Source: Octopus vulgaris (taxonomy: Eukaryota). From it: a DNA stretch of 64,000 nucleotides. Below are positions 5,508 through 63,820 of this stretch, piece by piece. The notes beneath the pieces are model-generated. The model saw nothing but the letters and a program-made list of their open reading frames with translations. It had not been told where the DNA came from and searched no databases. The translations under genes were made by a program, and so were the position numbers. Location of the stretch: NCBI GenBank assembly GCA_951406725.2, contig OX597832.1, positions 23,498,001 through 23,562,000 of the forward strand, given 5' to 3'. Numbering within the stretch: the first letter of the stretch is position 1; every line of letters starts with the position of its first letter.

Positions 5508-6441
5508 ATATATGCATGTATGTATATATTATATGTACATATACATATATACATATGTATATATATATACATACGTACATATATATTTACTGTATATTTT
5601 GTAAGTATATAACCCTAACTAGTTGATGTTTTGTCGACTATTTAGTGGAGATAGAAATAATATAGTTTCTCATACAGGCATAGTATGTCATAAAATTATA
5701 CGCATTTTCAAACTTGTGGGAAATGTTTCTAAACTAATAGCAGGCATTAAAGATGAGAAGGCGGCTGTTGACTGTATTACTGCCGCTTGTTTCAACGTGT
5801 AATTAGATCGGTATTTCACGTCAGACTTTACATGAAAAGGAATATGTTTTCAGTTAGTTTACTTCGAAAAGATTATGTCTGGATACAAAATTCATTATAC
5901 GATGTTCAATACGCGAATATAATTTTCTTCATGCGCTATCTCATGTTACGAATTTATTTGTATTTTATTTTGTTTGAACATGACAAAAGGACAGCAGCCT
6001 TTTAAATTACATTATTAAAGTGAATCTTTCACAACAAATTTCCTGTTCTTCCTTCCATCTGTTAGAGAGACAGACAGACAGACAGACAGACTGGCAGAGC
6101 AATAGTTCGCTCGCAGACACTACCTGTTGTGCTTCTCTGAACGCTTTGTCGAGTTTAGATAATTACTTCTGTTTGTTGCAAAGATTAGAGAGAAAAAATA
6201 CAGAGGGTTTCATAAGTTACTGTACGAAAGCAAGTGATTAGAAGGACTACATTAGATGAGTTTTTTTTTTAATTCTTAAATTTTTTTTCAATTAAACATC
6301 ACCCATTGCTACATTCAAGCTGTGAGTCTTCATTATCTGAAATTCTGCTTGGAATTTTATGAGCCCCAACAGGCAGATTCCGAAACATAAATCTGTTATG
6401 AAGTTAGTGAATGGCGTTGGTGAGGTTGTGCTTTTAAGCTC

Positions 6442-7038
6442 TATTTCTTTATTGCCCACAAGGGGCTAAACATAGAGGGAACAAACAAGGACATACAAAG
6501 GGATTAAGTCGATTACATCGACATCAGTGCGTAACTGGTACTTTATTTATCGACCCCGAAAGGATGACAGGCAAAGTCAACCTCGGCGGAATTTGAACTC
6601 AGAACGTAACGACAGACGAAATACCTATTTCTTTACTAAACAAGGAGCCAAACATAGAGGGGACAAACAAGGACATACAAAGGGATTAAGTCGATTACAT
6701 CGACCCCAGTGCGTAACTGGTACTTAATTTATCAACCTCGAAAGGATGAAAAGCAAAGTCGACCTCGGCGGAATTTGAACTCAGAACGTAACGACAGACG
6801 AAATACCTATTTCTTTACTACCCACAAGGGGCTAAACATAGAGGGTACAAACAAGGACAGACATAGGTATTAAGTCGATTACATCGACCCCAGTGCGTAA
6901 CTGGTACTTTATTTATCGACCCCGAAAGGATGAAAGCCAAGGTCGACCTCGGCGGAATTTGAACTCAGAACGTAACGACAGACGAAATACCGCTACGCAT
7001 TTCGCCCATCGTGCTAACGTTTCTGCCAGCTCACCGCC
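6442..7038 (-). mobile_element. SINE family A, tandem array of three units (about 181-nt period)
   Basis: One head followed by three body+tail units joined at aaagaaata|ggtatttcgtctg. Confidence 0.9.
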
Positions 7039-9331: not shown

Positions 9332-11041
9332 CTGAAATTAGATAAAAGAATTTTTAGTAACATATCAATAATTTTACAGTGAAACTTAAAATAACAATTT
9401 AGCTTTGCAGTAATGTACAGTGACATTCAATAATTTTTTAATGAAAATACAATGATGTATTAGTGAGATTTATACAGTGAACGTCTATGACATATTAAAC
9501 AGGTCTACTGTAGATGTACAGCGACCTACTCAAAGCTTCATAATGAATTTACGGGGTTATGCTAATAGTTCGAATTTAATGATGCTATAGAGAAATGTAT
9601 CCCCTTCAGTTTTGCCTCGCTTGTCTTCGACTGCCTTGTTTCGACACTCTTCTGTGCCGTCTCTTTTTATCTGTCTCCAGCTATTCCCCTGCAATTTCCA
9701 TTTCGTCCTTATTGTTATAAAGACGATAGGGTGCTATCAATGGACCGGGGCCACTCGCCTTCCTGGCTAACCTCCATCAGACACTAACAACGCGGTAAGT
9801 TTTTTGAGCTACGGTCAGAACTGCAATGTTACGAAAACCACAGTTTCTCCGCTCTTCAAATTGTCATGATTGCCTCTGTCTTTAACCATCGCTGCTGCCG
9901 TTCGTTCTTTCTCGCTGAATTATTCTTACCAGAAATCTAATGTCTAGAATTCATTGCCACACACTATGCCCTGTTTCCTCCTTACAATATTTTACCGCTC
10001 ATCTCCGAGAAGGAGTACAACTCTGGAATAAATTTAAAGTCTTCGACAGTCATTGGAGCTTGCATATATATGCAGAATAATCCTGCCAACATATTTTTTT
10101 TCTTTTTACTCAGCCTTCACTAACTTCCCGACAGACTATCACTCAAAACCAAAAGAGATGGCGCAGTCTGTAACACTTATATCCTGCCATTCTATATTTT
10201 GTGTGACATTAACTTCTGAGCAAGTGGGTCGCAACATTTATACCTCACATCTTCCTCACATCTTCCATCGAAACGTGCGTCTCTTCAGGCGATGTTTTCC
10301 ATTCGTCCCACCTATATCAAAAGAACACGCATTGCACCACAACACATCGTCAGTTAATATTTCAAAAGTTCTGTTTAAGGATTCATGGAATCCCCTTTCG
10401 TTTTTTAGCAACATATTCATAACCTTCTTGCTCTTTACATGATATTTTCTTGGGCAAGAATATACAGTTCCTTGTAATATATCTCTCCCATATTTTGTAC
10501 TTTTCTCTGAACCAGTCTATGTCTAACGACTCTTTGTGGATCGCTACTCTGGCAAAACCGCATCCATTGTTATCTATGCTATTGAAATTATCATTATCTT
10601 ATCATTCGATAAACTGTCAATATCTGCCATATTTTCTGCAATGGAATTCATTTTATTTTTCCATCTGTTTATTTTGCTTTTGAATGTTTTCTGTTTGTTT
10701 GGGGGTTTTCTTGTTTTGTTTGGTTTTTTTCTCTGTCGTTGTTTTGGGTTTTTTTTCAGCAATGCTAGCAAGCTTCTGGTTCTTACTTTTGCTGTTATCC
10801 AGAAAAAATGAGGCCACCATTAATAACTACTTAACAAAATCATATATGTTTGTTTCTTTTTTTAGTTAAATAATCCTTAATCCATTTCTTCCCCCTCAGG
10901 TAGAGGATTAAACGCGTAAAACTTCGATGAGTCTATTGTTAATAAAATAAAACAGAACGGAAAGTATTTTTCCTTCAAATTAATTATTGAAAAAAAAATC
11001 TTCACTTCCCTCTTCACTTGGTACTACGCTGTACAAACTAA

Positions 11042-11155
<114 letters not shown>

Positions 11156-11204
11156 TAATAATGAGGAGGAGGAGGAGGAGGAGGTGGAGGAGGAGAAGTA
11201 GGAG

Positions 11205-11395
11205 GAGGATAAGGTATACGATAAGGAAGACAGAAAAGTCGATAGATATGATAGGTTAGCTTGGGAGATTAAGCAGTTGTGGTCGATGAAAAAGATGGTA
11301 GTAGTACCAATAAGTGTCGGAGACCTGGAAACAGTGGGTAAAAGTCTTGCGAAGTACATCTTCAGCGTTAGAAGTTGTGCAAATACGAGAAGTGT
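11205..11395 (+). mobile_element. R4/Dong-like non-LTR retrotransposon 3' fragment ending in (TAA)n
   Basis: Translates KEDRKVDRYDRLAWEIKQLWSMKKMVVVPISVGDLETV, resembling a restriction-like endonuclease C-terminus. Confidence 0.7.
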
Positions 11396-11454
11396 TAATA
11401 ATAATAATAATTAAATATTAATAATAATAATATTAAGTATTAATAATAATAATA

Positions 11455-12720
11455 AATAAGAGGTTGAAAGCTAAAGCAGATAAACTAAAGGGAATTGAGC
11501 AGTACAGATTAAACAGACTTTTCGAATAAAATCAGAAACGATTCTATCAGCAAATGGATGGGAAAGAACAAGGTGTAAAGGCTGTGCTGGATGCTGAGGA
11601 AAGTAAAAGATTCTGGTTAAACATGTGGAAACAGCACAGAACTAAAGTAGAGTGGTTCAAGACACTCGAAGAGGAGAGTGGAGACTGTCAGCAGAAAGAA
11701 TTGAGAAAAAAAGCGAGGGGATGGTTAGAGATGAGTGCAGGCAAATTCCTAACTGGAAAGCGCGTGACCCAGATGGGGTTTAGGGCTTTTGGCTTAAAAC
11801 CTTCATAGCTCTGCACAGGAGAAATGCGAGACAGCTGGACGAAATATTGAATAGTGACATTCAAGTACCGATCTGGATGACAAAAGGAATAACGGTACAA
11901 TGCCAGAAAGACCCAAGTAAAGGGAAAGGGGTTGGAAATTTTTTCCACCACCATTTTGTTTGTTACTTATGTGGAAACTGATGACGGGCATCATATCAAA
12001 CAGCATCTATAAGTACCAAGATGAGAACGATCTGGAACAAAAAGAGTGTAGACGTAAGAGCTGAGGAACGAAAGATCAATTACCTATCGATAAGACTACC
12101 CTGGCTGATTGCAAGAAGAGACACAAAAATTTGGGGATGGCATGGGTGGACTACAGGAAAGCATATGACATGTTCCCATACTCGTGGATCATTGAATGGC
12201 TTAAACTACTTAAGGTCTCAGAATATTCTGAAGCTAATACGAAACTCAATGACAACGTAACGAGCTGAACTCACAGCATGGGGAGATAAGCTGAGAGAGG
12301 TAAATAGCGAAAGAGGAATCTTTCAAGGGGACAGTCTGTCGCCTCTCCTATTTGTTGTCTCTATACTGACGCTAATGAGCGTTTAAAAAAATACGCGTGG
12401 GGTACGTCCTAGGCAGGCTGATAGCAAACAAACTGTAGTTTATGTATGATCTAAAGCTAGTCACTAAGACTGAGAAAGACATTGAGAGTTTGACGGCAAC
12501 TGTGCAGATGATTAGCAAAGATATTGGCATGGAATTTGAGATCGAGAAATGTGGTGTAATGATTCTTAAAGGGGGAAAAATCAGTAAAAGCTATGGGATC
12601 AAGCTGGAAAGTGGTGAAACTATAAGGGAGATCGGAGAGGAATGATAGCTGCAGATTGCAAGCTCACTACGCATGCAAAACACCAGGATTTCCAAAAAAA
12701 AATCCGAGTTGAAGATAATG
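11455..12720 (+). mobile_element. R4/Dong-like reverse transcriptase pseudogene
   Basis: Broken frames contain [48 protein letters not shown] and FMYDLKL...DIGMEFEIEKC; stops and frameshifts present. Confidence 0.88.
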
Positions 12721-13142
12721 ATAATATATTCCGTCTATAATAATTAGATAGTATTTGACCACTGGAACATTAATCGGAGAGTTTGGGGAGTGGAAGGCTG
12801 GCACTGAAATTTTGAGTGTCAGCGTGTGGCGAATATATTGAGTGTATGTTTCTGTGTGGATGTGTGTGTGTGTGTGTGTGTTTTTGATTGAGGGTGTGTG
12901 CATGCGTACATTATATTACATAGTTTGCACTACAAAAATGTTATGTTCAATTTCGTATAATCATATATATATATATATTGTTATCGCCATATTAATATGG
13001 CATTCTTATAGATATAAGAATAATCGCTGCTGCTGGTCAGCTCCATGAGGCCACCGCCTTAAGATAGCTATTGATACACGATCTGTATCCATTATAACCT
13101 TCGAACAAGGGAGGTCAGCCGCTTCACACTGCCAGTCCGACA

Positions 13143-13184
13143 GCTACAGACGCGTTTCGGGGTATTGCCCCTTGTCAATGTAGC
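13143..13184 (-). ncRNA. Minimal type I hammerhead ribozyme motif A, copy 1
   Basis: GCUACA-UUGACAA-GGGG(CAAUA)CCCC-GAAA-CGCG-UC-UGUAGC: 6-bp stem I, U3:A8 core, 4-bp stem II, palindromic stem III, GUC cleavage triplet. Confidence 0.82.
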
Positions 13185-13230
13185 GCAGTCAGACCCCGCA
13201 GGTGTCGCCACTGACGTCTCTGTTCGAAGG

Positions 13231-13284
13231 TTTCTATTTACCTAGTTTCAGTGGAATACATCCACTTGTTTTCAATAATAGAAA
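13231..13284 (-). ncRNA. Minimal type I hammerhead ribozyme motif B
   Basis: UUUCUAUU-a-UUGAAAA-ca-AGUGGA(UGUAU)UCCACU-GAAA-CUAGG-UA-AAUAGAAA: 8-bp stem I, U3:A8 core, 6-bp stem II, GUA triplet; a few extra unpaired nucleotides. Confidence 0.65.
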
Positions 13285-13506
13285 TATTAAAATTACAAAG
13301 TCTCTATAAAAGAGATTACGGCAGCGTTTACTGGAAATTAATTGTTATCGCCATATTAATATGGCATTCTTATAGATATAAGAATAATCGCTGCCGCTGG
13401 TCAGCTCCATGAGGCCACCGCCTTAAGATAGCTATTGATACACGATCTGTATCCATTATAACCTTCGAACAAGGGAGGTCAGCCGCTTCACACTGCTAGT
13501 CCGACA

Positions 13507-13548
13507 GCTACAGACGCGTTTCGGGGTATTGCCCCTTGTCAATGTAGC
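13507..13548 (-). ncRNA. Minimal type I hammerhead ribozyme motif A, copy 2
   Basis: Identical to 13143-13184, 364 nt away. Confidence 0.82.
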
Positions 13549-13748
13549 GCAGTCAGACCCCGCAGGTGTCGCCACTGACGTCTCTGTTCGAAGGTTTCTA
13601 TGTATGCATATACGTGTTATGTAAATGTATATATATATATAGATATATATATATATATATATATATACAAGATAAGAAAATGGAGAAATACATCTAAATC
13701 AAATATCAATTACCAGATAATACTCAATCACATATATATATATATATA

Positions 13749-13800
<52 letters not shown>

Positions 13801-13805
13801 GTATG

Positions 13806-13844
<39 letters not shown>

Positions 13845-14134
13845 GTATAGGGTATGAGAGGTGTCGGTGTCAAGAAGAACCAAAAAGTGTCGGGTAGCGC
13901 TAAGTGCTACGGATAAACCATGTTTATTCTCCAGGTTCGATAATCATACGAGTGATGAGTCCAACGTAGGCCATGTATTAGCATGTATATATGTTTAAAT
14001 TGAAACAATATCCCGGAAACACCTGTAAGACTTTATAAATATTCTGAAAAATATTTACAGCCTTGGATCTTTTATCTCAGTCTCTCACTTTCTGTACATA
14101 TATAGTTAAAATTTATAGAAAATCAATATACATC

Positions 14135-14194
14135 ACATACATACATCACATACATACATACATACATACATACATACATACATACATACATACA

Positions 14195-14228
<34 letters not shown>

Positions 14229-14290
14229 CGTGCGCACATGCATACATACATACATACATACATACATACATACATACATACATACATACA

Positions 14291-14320
<30 letters not shown>
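14135..14320. repeat. (ACAT)n microsatellite
   Basis: Direct reading. Confidence 0.95.
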
Positions 14321-14324
<4 letters not shown>

Positions 14325-14898
14325 CATATATGTATACCTACAAATATACATACGTGCACACAGTGAAGAGTGTGATGTACGATATATTTTTAGAGATTAA
14401 GAAAGGATTTTAATATTTCATTTCATTTGAATTGATGGGCTATTATCTCTAATTAATAAAACTGTCACAGTTTATTATGATATGACTTTACTACTACTAC
14501 TACTGCTAGTGCTACTACTATTACTACTACTACTGCTAATACAATGAATGATGATGATGATGATGATGATGATTGTGGAGGTTGTGATGATCGGTGGTGA
14601 TGGTGGTGATGATGGCGTCGACGACGATGACATCAAAAACAACAACACCAATAACGCTAAAGATAATCTCTGAGCAAGATGAAGTGGAAAAGGACAACAA
14701 TTAAACGATATATCAGAGGGGAAGGGCAAATTTAGATTGAATCTGGTGATATTTTATCAATGGTAAGGCCTGTCGAAATGTTATTTCTTAATTTATGGAT
14801 TTAATGAACCAAAATCAAACTGAAAGAGATTTATGAGTTTAAGAACAACGATGAATGTAGGTCATACGTACGTCGTACGCACATACGTACGTATGTAA

Positions 14899-15051
14899 GC
14901 GGCTGTGTGGTAAGAAGCTTGCTTCCCAACCGCATGCTTCCAGGTTCCATACCACTATGTGGTACCTTGACCAAGTGTCTTCTGCTATAGCCTCGAGCCG
15001 ACTAAAGCCCTGTGAGTGGATTTTGTAGCCGGAAACTGAAAGAAGTCTGTC

Positions 15052-15055
<4 letters not shown>
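14899..15055 (+). mobile_element. SINE family B 5' half
   Basis: gcggctgtgtggtaagaagcttgcttcccaacc...ggaaactgaaagaagtctgtcg then (TA)n. Confidence 0.8.
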
Positions 15056-15083
<28 letters not shown>

Positions 15084-15096
15084 GACAGAAAGAAAC

Positions 15097-15164
<68 letters not shown>

Positions 15165-15194
15165 TTGTTTCTTTGTGTGTTTCTTTCTGTGTTC

Positions 15195-15230
15195 CTTTCT
15201 GTGGAAGAGCGTAGGCTCGAAACGTAAAAG
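15195..15230 (+). ncRNA. Hammerhead-like motif (variant core) in a (TA)n-associated repeat spanning about 15163-15325
   Basis: CUUU-CUGUGGA-A-GAGC(GUAG)GCUC-GAAA-CG-UA-AAAG. Confidence 0.55.
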
Positions 15231-16454
15231 ACTTTTTCAATTCCCGAGAGTTATACTAATATATCTGTTTGTTTTATACACCACCTGTTTTCGTCTTGTG
15301 TTTTTTCGTGAATTCTTCCTATATATGTATATATATATATATATATGGTTTCCGGCTACCAAATCCACTCACAAGGCTAGTCGAGTCGAGAAAGAAAGGT
15401 CAGGCTTGGCCGAACACCGGTCACTACCATCTGTGCAACATCTATATTCTCACCTTCCCTCCTCTTTCACTTCACTCTGTCCCTTTTCTTTTTTTCTCGT
15501 CCCTCTCTAATTCTTCTATCCCTCTGTCGTTGCTCTCTTCACGTGACCGGTATTGGGCCAAGCCTGACCTTTCTTTCTTGGTTCGACTATCATCCGTGCA
15601 ACATCTATATTTCTCACTATGCCTGTCATCTCTTATGTCCCTACCGTAAGCCTTCACTTTCACACGCCAGCTTAATATAATTAGTCCTTAGTCGAAAGAC
15701 ACCTGTTGTTATGTCCTGTTATTTGCATTTCTATTTGTGTACCATTTCTCCGTTTTTTTCCGTCCTTGTTTTCGTATACATTCGCTGCTTGCTTCCAAGG
15801 AATCTAGTGGTCTTAGCTTAGTTTTTTCTTGGGGCTGGCCAGATTGGAGCAATCTGGAGTATAACCAGCCGAAATTGCAAAGATAATCTGGAACTCGACT
15901 CAGAAAAGAAAACGTTGAATGACCCGTCCGTGTTTTTTCTTGTCCCTTCTTTTGTATCATCTAGCTTTCTGGATGTTTTGCGTCTTCTTATCGAAAAACA
16001 GACGCATGAATTGAAGTTGATACACGTCATGAGACCCAGGTCATGGAAAGGCACATAAGACGAGTTCCTGGGGGTTCCCCCTTTTTATCCCGCAGAGTGT
16101 CCCATAACCACCCTACTCACCAAACAGGATTGGTGGCGTTGCCGCTTTATTCGCCGAAAATCCGAGCATGCAATAGCTTGTACTGGATTACGTGTTATCG
16201 GTAATACTCAAGAACGACCTGACGTAAGTATACATGCATGAATATATATTAAAGCAGCTGCAATAATGTAAGTATTAGCGATCGCACGTACATAGTGTAT
16301 GTGATTCCTTTATACGCCGAATTGGCTGCGTCTTAGGAAACCTCCTACACGGTACCGAGGGTTAAAGAATAATGAATATCTCCAGCAAGGCGAGACACCT
16401 CATCCCACAGTGAACTAATATTATATATATGTATACACATATATATACTTATAT

Positions 16455-51421: not shown

Positions 51422-51875
51422 AGAAGGTTTGAAAATGCAACTTTAAAAGATGTTTATTTACTTTACCGGTTTCACTCTTTAGAAAAAGATTGTCAAAAGT
51501 AACATGTAAAATATTGGTTGTGTTAATTATTGGTTGTCACAAAATGCTACAATACATATATGGAAACTATCTTTAACATTTTCTTGAGAATGTATATTTA
51601 TGTTGTAATCTTTTGTGCTCAATATTTTAATGAACTTATTAAACTTTTTTATGTCCTTAACATGTTCTTGTTACCAAAGACTCTATATATGTATTGTAGC
51701 ATTTTGTGACAACCAATAATTAACACAACCAAACTATTACATGTTACTTTTGACAATCTTTTTCTAAAGAGTGAAAGCGATAAAGTAAATAAACATCTTT
51801 CAAAATTGCATTTTCAAACCTTCTATCTTATATAATTCGACTCGTGTGGTACCTTACATCTCCACTTCATTTTAT
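51422..51875. mobile_element. Inverted-repeat element with a hammerhead motif in each arm (Penelope-like inverted termini)
   Basis: Arms 51422-51561 and 51685-51824 (140 nt each). Motif UUACUU-UUGACAA-UCUUU(UUCU)AAAGA-gu-GAAA-CCGG-UA-AAGUAA at 51458-51502 (-) and a variant at 51744-51788 (+). The right arm runs into (TA)n. Confidence 0.65.
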
Positions 51876-63021: not shown

Positions 63022-63820
63022 AAGCGGTGAACTGGCCAAATCGTTAGCACGCCGGGCGAAATGCTTAGCGCTATTTCGTCTGCCATAACGTTCTGAGTTC
63101 AAATTCCGCCGAGGTCGACTTTGCCTTTCATCCTTTTGAGGTCGATTAAATTAAGTACCAGTTACGCACTGGGGTCGATGTAATCGACTTAATCCGTTTG
63201 TCTGTCCTTGTTTGTCCCCTCTGTATTTAGCCCCTTGTGGGTAGTAAAGAAATAGGTATTTCGTCTGCCGTTACTTTCTGAGTTCAAATTCCGCCGAGGT
63301 TGACTTTGCCTTTCATCCTTTTGAGGTCGATAAATTAAGTACCAGTTACGCACTGAGGTCGATGTAATAGACTTAATCCCTTTGTCTCTCCTTTTTTGTC
63401 CCCTCTATGTTTAGCCCCTTGTGGGTAATAAAGAAATACGAAACGTTTGTACGCCGGGCGAAATGCTTAGCAGTATTCTTTCTGCCGCTACGTTCTGAGT
63501 TCAAATTCCACCGTGGTCGTCTTTGCCTTTCATCCTTTCGGGGTCGATTAAATAAGTACCAGTTACGCAGTGGGGTCGATGTAATCGACTTAATCCGTTT
63601 GTCTGTTCTTGTTTGTCCCCTCTGTGTTTTGCCCCTTGTGGGTAGTAAAGAAATAGGTATTTCGTCTGTGTTTACGTTCAAATTCCGTCGAGGTCGACTT
63701 TGCCTTTCATACCTTTCGGGGTCGATAAATTAAGTACCTTTTACGTACTGGGATCGATCTAATCGACTCGCCTCCTCCCCAAAAATGTTGGGCCTTGAGC
63801 CTAGAGTAGAAAAGAATATA
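63022..63820 (+). mobile_element. SINE family A, tandem array of four units (three long-tail, last short-tail)
   Basis: Unit junctions at 63254/63255, 63438/63439 and 63655/63656. Confidence 0.9.

Follow-up and report, generated by a model that had tools for sequence, protein, structure and literature searches.

A dispersed 364-nt octopus repeat is probably a non-LTR retrozyme copied into (TA)n tracts by a Neptune-type enzyme

Results

The insertion at positions 12977–13601 of the window (the whole 64,000-nt stretch of DNA analysed here) is most probably one copy of a dispersed, non-coding, 364-nt non-LTR retrozyme that is likely copied into (TA)n tracts by a Neptune-type reverse transcriptase (RT)-endonuclease. 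The original prediction of a non-autonomous, hammerhead-bearing repeat mobilised by Penelope enzymes was supported by copy number, fixed start sites, inverted arms, target duplications and covariation in hammerhead A, and we hold with high confidence that the element is a hammerhead retroposon mobilised by Penelope elements (PLEs).

Layout of the insertion

The whole insertion is a single-arm copy of 1.7 retrozyme units. Its RNA sense is that of the minus strand, to judge by hammerhead A and by where the fixed RNA 3' ends of the family lie. Unit positions are numbered q1–q364, with q1 at window position 12977. The direct repeat described earlier (12977–13237 and 13341–13601) was recovered as 261 nt with two differences at a spacing of 364; it delimits a full unit (q1–q364; 12977–13340, minus strand) and a partial second unit (q1–q261; 13341–13601, minus strand), which forms the variable end of this copy, the 5' end of its RNA. 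The TA-rich flanks that had been claimed were found on both sides: the (TA)n target tract at the fixed end, which belongs to the inner-site class defined below, occupies 12963–12978, and another (TA)n tract lies beyond the variable end at 13628–13667. As had been stated, the element holds no credible ORF; no ATG ORF of 30 aa or more was present within it, and the three ATG ORFs that touch it are microsatellite frames. The described self-complementarity was also confirmed, the 364-nt monomer folding at −137.4 kcal/mol (z = −8.9) with none of 100 shuffles as good, and the predicted monomer fold contains both the hairpins named before and the rod around motif A. Stem I is prolonged by this long, interrupted rod (13096–13232, repeated at 13460–13596, minus strand), whose tip bears hammerhead A, as indicated by the fold and by two compensatory pairs outside the ribozyme.

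Copy number and subfamilies

A search of the genome (2.8 billion bases in 227 contigs) for the unit revealed a dispersed family. A 35-base pattern of motif B gave 1,511 exact matches against none in the control, and a generic hammerhead A pattern, which includes a few other families, gave 1,794 against 22. The exact 36-mer of hammerhead A and the exact q1–25 sequence were present in 198 and 843 copies genome-wide, respectively; such pattern counts refer to units, not loci. Grouping of 86 distinct full units, leaving out five singletons, yielded five subfamilies of 26, 41, 8, 3 and 3 units that are 80–90% identical.

Assembled contigs of sequencing runs labelled organism A, B and D contained 90–100% matches to the unit. 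In contigs of runs X11, X18 and X20, whose RNA status is guessed, and of X7, most of the unit is represented and the unit junction is among the parts covered; strand, level and circularity are unreadable from contigs. Record 3 of run X11 contains a diverged relative in which A and B lie closer together than in the window and which was absent among the loci examined.

Hammerhead A

Motif A was found on the minus strand at 13143–13184 and 13507–13548, the two matches comparing with none in 100 shuffles. Its predicted cuts lie at 13149/13148 and, in the upstream copy, at 13513/13512, which would delimit a 364-nt cut-to-cut monomer (13149–13512, minus strand), a candidate circular RNA. The motif had been placed with minimal type I hammerheads; its layout is canonical rather than minimal, with stems I, II and III of 6, 4 and 2 bp and a palindromic loop closing stem III. 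The core reads UUGANAA, that is, U3:A8 replaces C3:G8, a feature absent from the original prediction. Neither hammerhead A nor motif B was recognised in an Rfam scan of window positions 11000–16000 with E values up to 10.

With the core left open, the hammerhead A pattern gave 1,183 matches, covering two subfamilies. Among the 100 matches listed, N7 was A in 74 and C in 26, and the other changes were five singletons, two of them at invariant positions. The remaining subfamilies keep the core with U or C at N7. Other subfamilies show one swapped pair in stem I and one in stem II, and in one subfamily the stem III loop changed from GC to AU by a double change that kept the palindrome. Across five related subfamilies, 6 pairs were compensatory, 6 one-sided, 19 broken and 75 invariant, and the covariation score was matched by 10 of 500 shuffles.

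In the predicted fold of the window transcript the stems of hammerhead A form with a probability of about 0.97, and in the predicted monomer, which is highly self-paired, hammerhead A is free to fold. Metazoan type I hammerheads of canonical layout act as dimers, and a U3:A8 core has been described in Schistosoma PLEs (PMC4209133). As far as sequence can tell, hammerhead A is conserved in the manner of a working, dimer-type hammerhead, with modest covariation, and it is likely active. A literature search found no activity data on U3:A8 in any paper, and eight of nine Xenopus retrozyme dimers did not cleave (10.64898/2026.07.22.740005). Only 6 of 318 variable arm ends, in the sample described next, fell at the hammerhead A cut (q170–174), without a pile-up; genomic ends therefore prove no cleavage.

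Insertion anatomy

The anatomy of 195 distinct loci with 318 arms, chosen by patterns and mostly from contigs C1–C9, was analysed. Nearly all arms (299/318) start at q292–306 or q352–6, with modes at q299 and q359–361, about 62 nt apart. These fixed starts correspond to RNA 3' ends, and neither lies at a ribozyme cut. They bound a Penelope-type tail of about 62 nt (13275–13337, minus strand in the window), with the outer site at ~13275 and the inner site at ~13335–13337. A (TA)3 sequence directly abuts 232 of the 299 fixed-start arms.

One arm was present at 79 loci, two at 109 and three at seven. Among the 107 head-to-head loci, 89 had one arm per site, four were inner/inner, none was outer/outer and 14 included an unassigned arm; overlaps at the head-to-head junctions peaked at 2–3 nt. 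Flanking duplications of 10–14 bp were seen at 19 of 188 loci, a count made without a control. Both ends of the element differ and vary, without an LTR pattern, and the variable ends are scattered, with a peak at q127–134 at the base of the rod. Ends at q42–54 at first seemed to depend on the start site, but closer examination did not bear this out.

PLEs characteristically show a tail restricted to one end, an inverted truncated arm and a bias toward microsatellites (PMC8557442). In vitro, the tail of a lizard PLE lies between two internal RT start sites, targets are AT-rich and both strands are extended (PMC11167929).

Form of the template

Tandem arrays reach 7.5 units of one haplotype. Discordance at polymorphic sites was 1.6% within an arm, 1.9% between the arms of a locus and 6.6% between loci of a subfamily. 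Since the two arms of a locus share their haplotype as closely as units within an arm, they were likely copied from one RNA; the arms were assigned to different subfamilies at 6 of 107 loci, which misassignment of short arms may explain. In a previously unused sample selected by q1–25, 26 of 71 arms extend beyond the A cut and 12 are longer than one unit, and the templates were therefore circles or uncut multimers.

Locus-private variants bear on the choice between these two. Nine of 213 occur in every covered unit of their arm. The other 204 occur in a single unit; they are later mutations and neutral on the question of the circle, so that the circle argument rests on few sites. The uniform haplotypes along arrays, together with the nine all-unit variants, favour a monomer circle, and we regard a circular template as fairly probable.

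The same Penelope-driven element could instead be copied from uncut, linear read-through RNA of tandem arrays, with no circle and with a hammerhead that merely trims transcripts. Consistent with this, the A cut shows no excess of ends, uncut RNA is the main substrate of the lizard PLE in vitro (PMC11167929) and arrays of 5–7.5 units exist as possible sources. On the other hand, the many distinct haplotypes, each uniform along its array, and the nine all-unit private variants would then need a one-unit bottleneck or homogenisation. Moreover, 5' truncation lets linear copying shorten arrays and never lengthen them, and the palindromic stem III was kept by a double change. We consider a linear template unlikely.

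Motif B

The letters of motif B were present as described, on the minus strand at 13231–13284 with GUA ending at 13239. The original prediction went further, taking A and B for two distinct working hammerheads in each monomer, which would both cleave to give 90-nt and 274-nt pieces or offer a choice of processing site. Motif B does have the order UUGA..AA, hairpin, GAAAC..GUA, with a U3:A8 core, a near-palindromic loop and compatible stems, and an unpaired base after A9 and a short stem I are normal in the minimal hammerheads of PLEs (PMC4209133). In addition, 13 of 318 arms end at q261–266, and 4 of 79 single-arm loci, including the window copy, end at about q261–262, beside the motif B cut. 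However, these ends sit in a TAT stretch and are equally well explained by its microhomology with (TA)n targets.

The register of motif B is defective. An extra unpaired A lies between stem I and position 3, before the core; position 1 pairs in only 1% in the canonical register; two extra bases follow A9; and the closing pair of stem II (10.1–11.1) is an A-C mismatch in four of six sequences. None of the 16 proposed pairs has a compensatory change. In the predicted fold, stem I has a probability of 0–0.37 against 0.6 for a rival hairpin, which together with a conserved 7-bp helix buries the core and stem III.

Furthermore, the core is broken in two lineages that have spread. Among the 100 matches listed, A15.1 is changed to G in 14 copies at 10 loci and A13 to U in 11 copies at 11 loci; two further copies derive from these variants, altogether 27 of the 100 matches listed. 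The 10 A13-to-U loci examined form one whole subfamily with an intact hammerhead A. On one chromosome the two broken lineages have at least 10 and at least 11 loci, with A intact. Since these lineages propagated, the element spreads without a working motif B. From the register defects, the lack of covariation and the broken lineages, we concluded that the claim of two different hammerheads is unsupported as to function; cleavage by both motifs is improbable, and motif B itself is doubtful as an active hammerhead to the same degree.

A type III reading of motif B, with a cut near q317/318, was rejected: four extra bases follow the cut, the same lineages are broken and q317 accounts for just 4 of 318 ends. 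The helix that closes this reading is predicted well among copies of the majority type, and we retained it as a structural helix.

The motif B region is the most conserved stretch between subfamilies and adjoins the outer start site, just 3' of it. In the lizard PLE, RNA just 3' of the outer start site is needed for binding (PMC11167929). This conservation and this requirement together suggest a docking role, and motif B is probably a non-cutting relic, a hammerhead-like hairpin domain retained in the docking site of the enzyme. The window copy carries a rare base at 13297, found in 1 of 145 arms, which is a mismatch in the conserved 7-bp helix around motif B; for this reason the fold first proposed for motif B looks better in the window copy than in the family.

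Candidate enzyme

Neptune-type PLEs, traced from a neighbouring ORF and encoding a Cys linker, GIY-YIG and RT, are abundant in the genome; 38 PLE loci out of 21,204 candidates were examined. Three families were distinguished: Nep-1 (L254–L283, L289), Nep-2 (L284, L285, L287) and Nep-3 (L290, L291). The ends of Nep-1 fall at an inner (6/25) or an outer site (18/25) about 49 nt apart, with one arm per site in three of three two-arm loci. The distance from its own hammerhead cut to the inner end is mostly 170 nt, compared with 177 nt in the retrozyme, and its last 12 bases match the outer end of the retrozyme at 11 positions. Alignments of the Nep-1 tail with four retrozyme subfamilies were beaten by 0–4 of 500 shuffles, the match being AT-rich, gapped and post hoc, and those of the roughly delimited tails of the two other Neptune families by 66–256 of 500. 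No longer similarity between the retrozyme and the pseudo-LTRs (pLTRs) of the three families was found by blastn. Because the comparison is post hoc and AT-rich and lacks such longer similarity, the unit is not a pLTR from any of the three, and the partnership is no more than a lead; we give Nep-1 or a close relative an even chance of being the enzyme. A search for the sequence that comes after the Nep-1 outer end in a tandem junction gave 14 matches, all of them host DNA.

The unit might also be the pLTR of an autonomous Penelope family, its copies being truncated ends, an outcome that had been named as fatal to the prediction. The layout of cut, 177 nt, inner site, tail and outer site indeed matches that of Nep-1 pLTRs, and Xenopus retrozymes are homologous to pLTRs (10.64898/2026.07.22.740005). 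Nevertheless, the arms at all 195 loci run into further units, a second arm or host DNA without a shared ORF, units join units directly for up to 7.5 turns, and the pLTRs of the three Neptune families are unrelated. An ORF with RT and GIY-YIG between pLTRs was found neither inside the element nor as a shared ORF beside its copies. The pLTR reading is thus very improbable for the present-day unit, and pLTR ancestry of the unit is likely.

The Neptune pLTR hammerheads use swapped core pairs as well, A3:U8 in Nep-1 and Nep-3 and U3:A8 in Nep-2; the accessible text of PMC4209133 does not mention A3:U8. Directly behind a Neptune copy, L286:3910–5001 contains the start of a Penelope/Poseidon-type ORF preceded by a C3:G8 hammerhead-like motif. 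P0002 is another Penelope/Poseidon-type ORF in the genome.

Other features of the window and genome

The minus strand at window 51458–51502 contains another type I hammerhead-like motif, an unrelated one with a 6-bp stem I, a palindromic stem III and a U3:A8 core; it is probably a PLE pLTR fragment, similar motifs occurring at L247. A second, older hammerhead repeat family (L227, L234, L236, L237, L239, L240, L241 and L246) has the stem III palindrome of the retrozyme and, like it, a U3:A8 core, with unrelated flanks. The same sequence is found to either side of its ribozyme, as it would be in a tandem unit, and its copies end in microsatellites. Tandem arrays of 182–217-bp units at window 6441–6991 and 63072–63655, two related-looking repeats, may represent octopus tRNA-derived SINEs, which they resemble. 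On the plus strand at window ~11700–12660, 300 bp upstream of the retrozyme, lies a broken non-LTR RT whose motifs resemble those of the R4/Dong clade.

This RT and the absence of an Rfam hammerhead match speak for a satellite or a LINE-dependent SINE with a chance hammerhead look-alike, a reading that is hardly credible given the conserved hammerhead A core in which N7 alone is free, the dispersed short arrays, two fixed starts and inverted arms that are Penelope traits (PMC8557442), and the fact that no poly(A) or 3' tail in common with the upstream RT was seen.

Discussion

Metazoan non-LTR retrozymes are known from coral, mussel and axolotl (PMC7229834) and from a vertebrate survey (10.64898/2026.07.22.740005), and the octopus element shows every feature of them that is testable in sequence. 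Like them, it has a non-coding tandem unit in the range of 150–450 bp (364 nt, compared with 350–390 bp in mussel) with one canonical type I hammerhead each, a weak palindromic stem III suited to dimer cleavage, a self-paired monomer, a GC content below 50%, duplications of more than 4 bp and co-occurrence with PLEs. It differs in its U3:A8 core, theirs being C3:G8, in its mostly short, often head-to-head two-arm loci instead of long arrays, and in the hammerhead-like relic beside its outer start, a comparison made by description and not by sequence.

With the pLTRs and tails of PLEs of the Neptune and Poseidon clades (PMC4209133, PMC8557442, PMC11167929), the family shares two internal starts, a tail at one end, an inverted 5'-truncated arm, partial tandems, microsatellite targeting and the U3:A8 core (Schistosoma PLEs; Nep-2). 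Unlike them, it has no ORF, its hammerhead is canonical and not minimal, and unit joins unit. Its tail of about 62 nt is longer than the 30–40 nt of published PLEs and the 49 nt of Nep-1. Plant LTR retrozymes, according to PMC7229834 and 10.64898/2026.07.22.740005, are likewise non-autonomous and hammerhead-processed with a circular intermediate, the last being putative for the octopus family, but have LTRs, a PBS, a PPT, type III hammerheads and 4-bp duplications, none of which was observed in the octopus family, with its type I hammerhead and 10–14-bp duplications.

A literature search on octopus and cephalopod hammerheads, retrozymes, ribozymes and Penelope found no description of the family; Repbase, Dfam and the survey supplements lie outside that search and may hold it. 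One of the two supplementary files of PMC4209133 was searched and contained no octopus match. Mobilisation by PLEs and circle-templated tandem cDNA have been put forward for animal retrozymes as hypotheses (PMC7229834, PMC4209133, 10.64898/2026.07.22.740005). What is new here is probably the insertion anatomy, namely twin Penelope-type initiation on an ORF-free, probably circular RNA, together with a candidate enzyme.

Here, we propose a model in which a locus with two A motifs, such as that in the window, would be transcribed on the minus strand. The two A motifs would pair via the palindromic stem III and excise the 364-nt monomer, which a host ligase would, with fair probability, close into a circle. 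Binding of a Neptune protein near the tail and motif B would be followed by nicks about 12 bp apart in the two target strands, each of which would prime a cDNA, at the inner and the outer site of one RNA. Synthesis would roll round the circle for a variable length. The two cDNAs would then join by 2–4 nt of microhomology to give head-to-head arms, or one arm alone would result, as in the window. In its full form, which we offer only tentatively, a dimer of the Neptune enzyme may start two cDNAs, each at its own fixed site, on a single circle made by the ribozyme and roll round it, hundreds of family insertions may record the reaction, and U3:A8 retrozymes may be a large class missed by standard hammerhead searches.

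The family is young and free of ORFs and shows the Penelope footprint base by base, with a candidate enzyme and a 364-nt template named. The questions of which enzyme spreads animal retrozymes and whether Penelope-type RTs copy circular RNA thereby become addressable by a published in vitro assay (PMC11167929). Rfam misses this family of more than 1,000 copies with a U3:A8 hammerhead. If true, twin priming on a circle would tie animal retrozymes to a named enzyme, and one model would explain the tails, inverted arms and partial tandems of Penelope elements.
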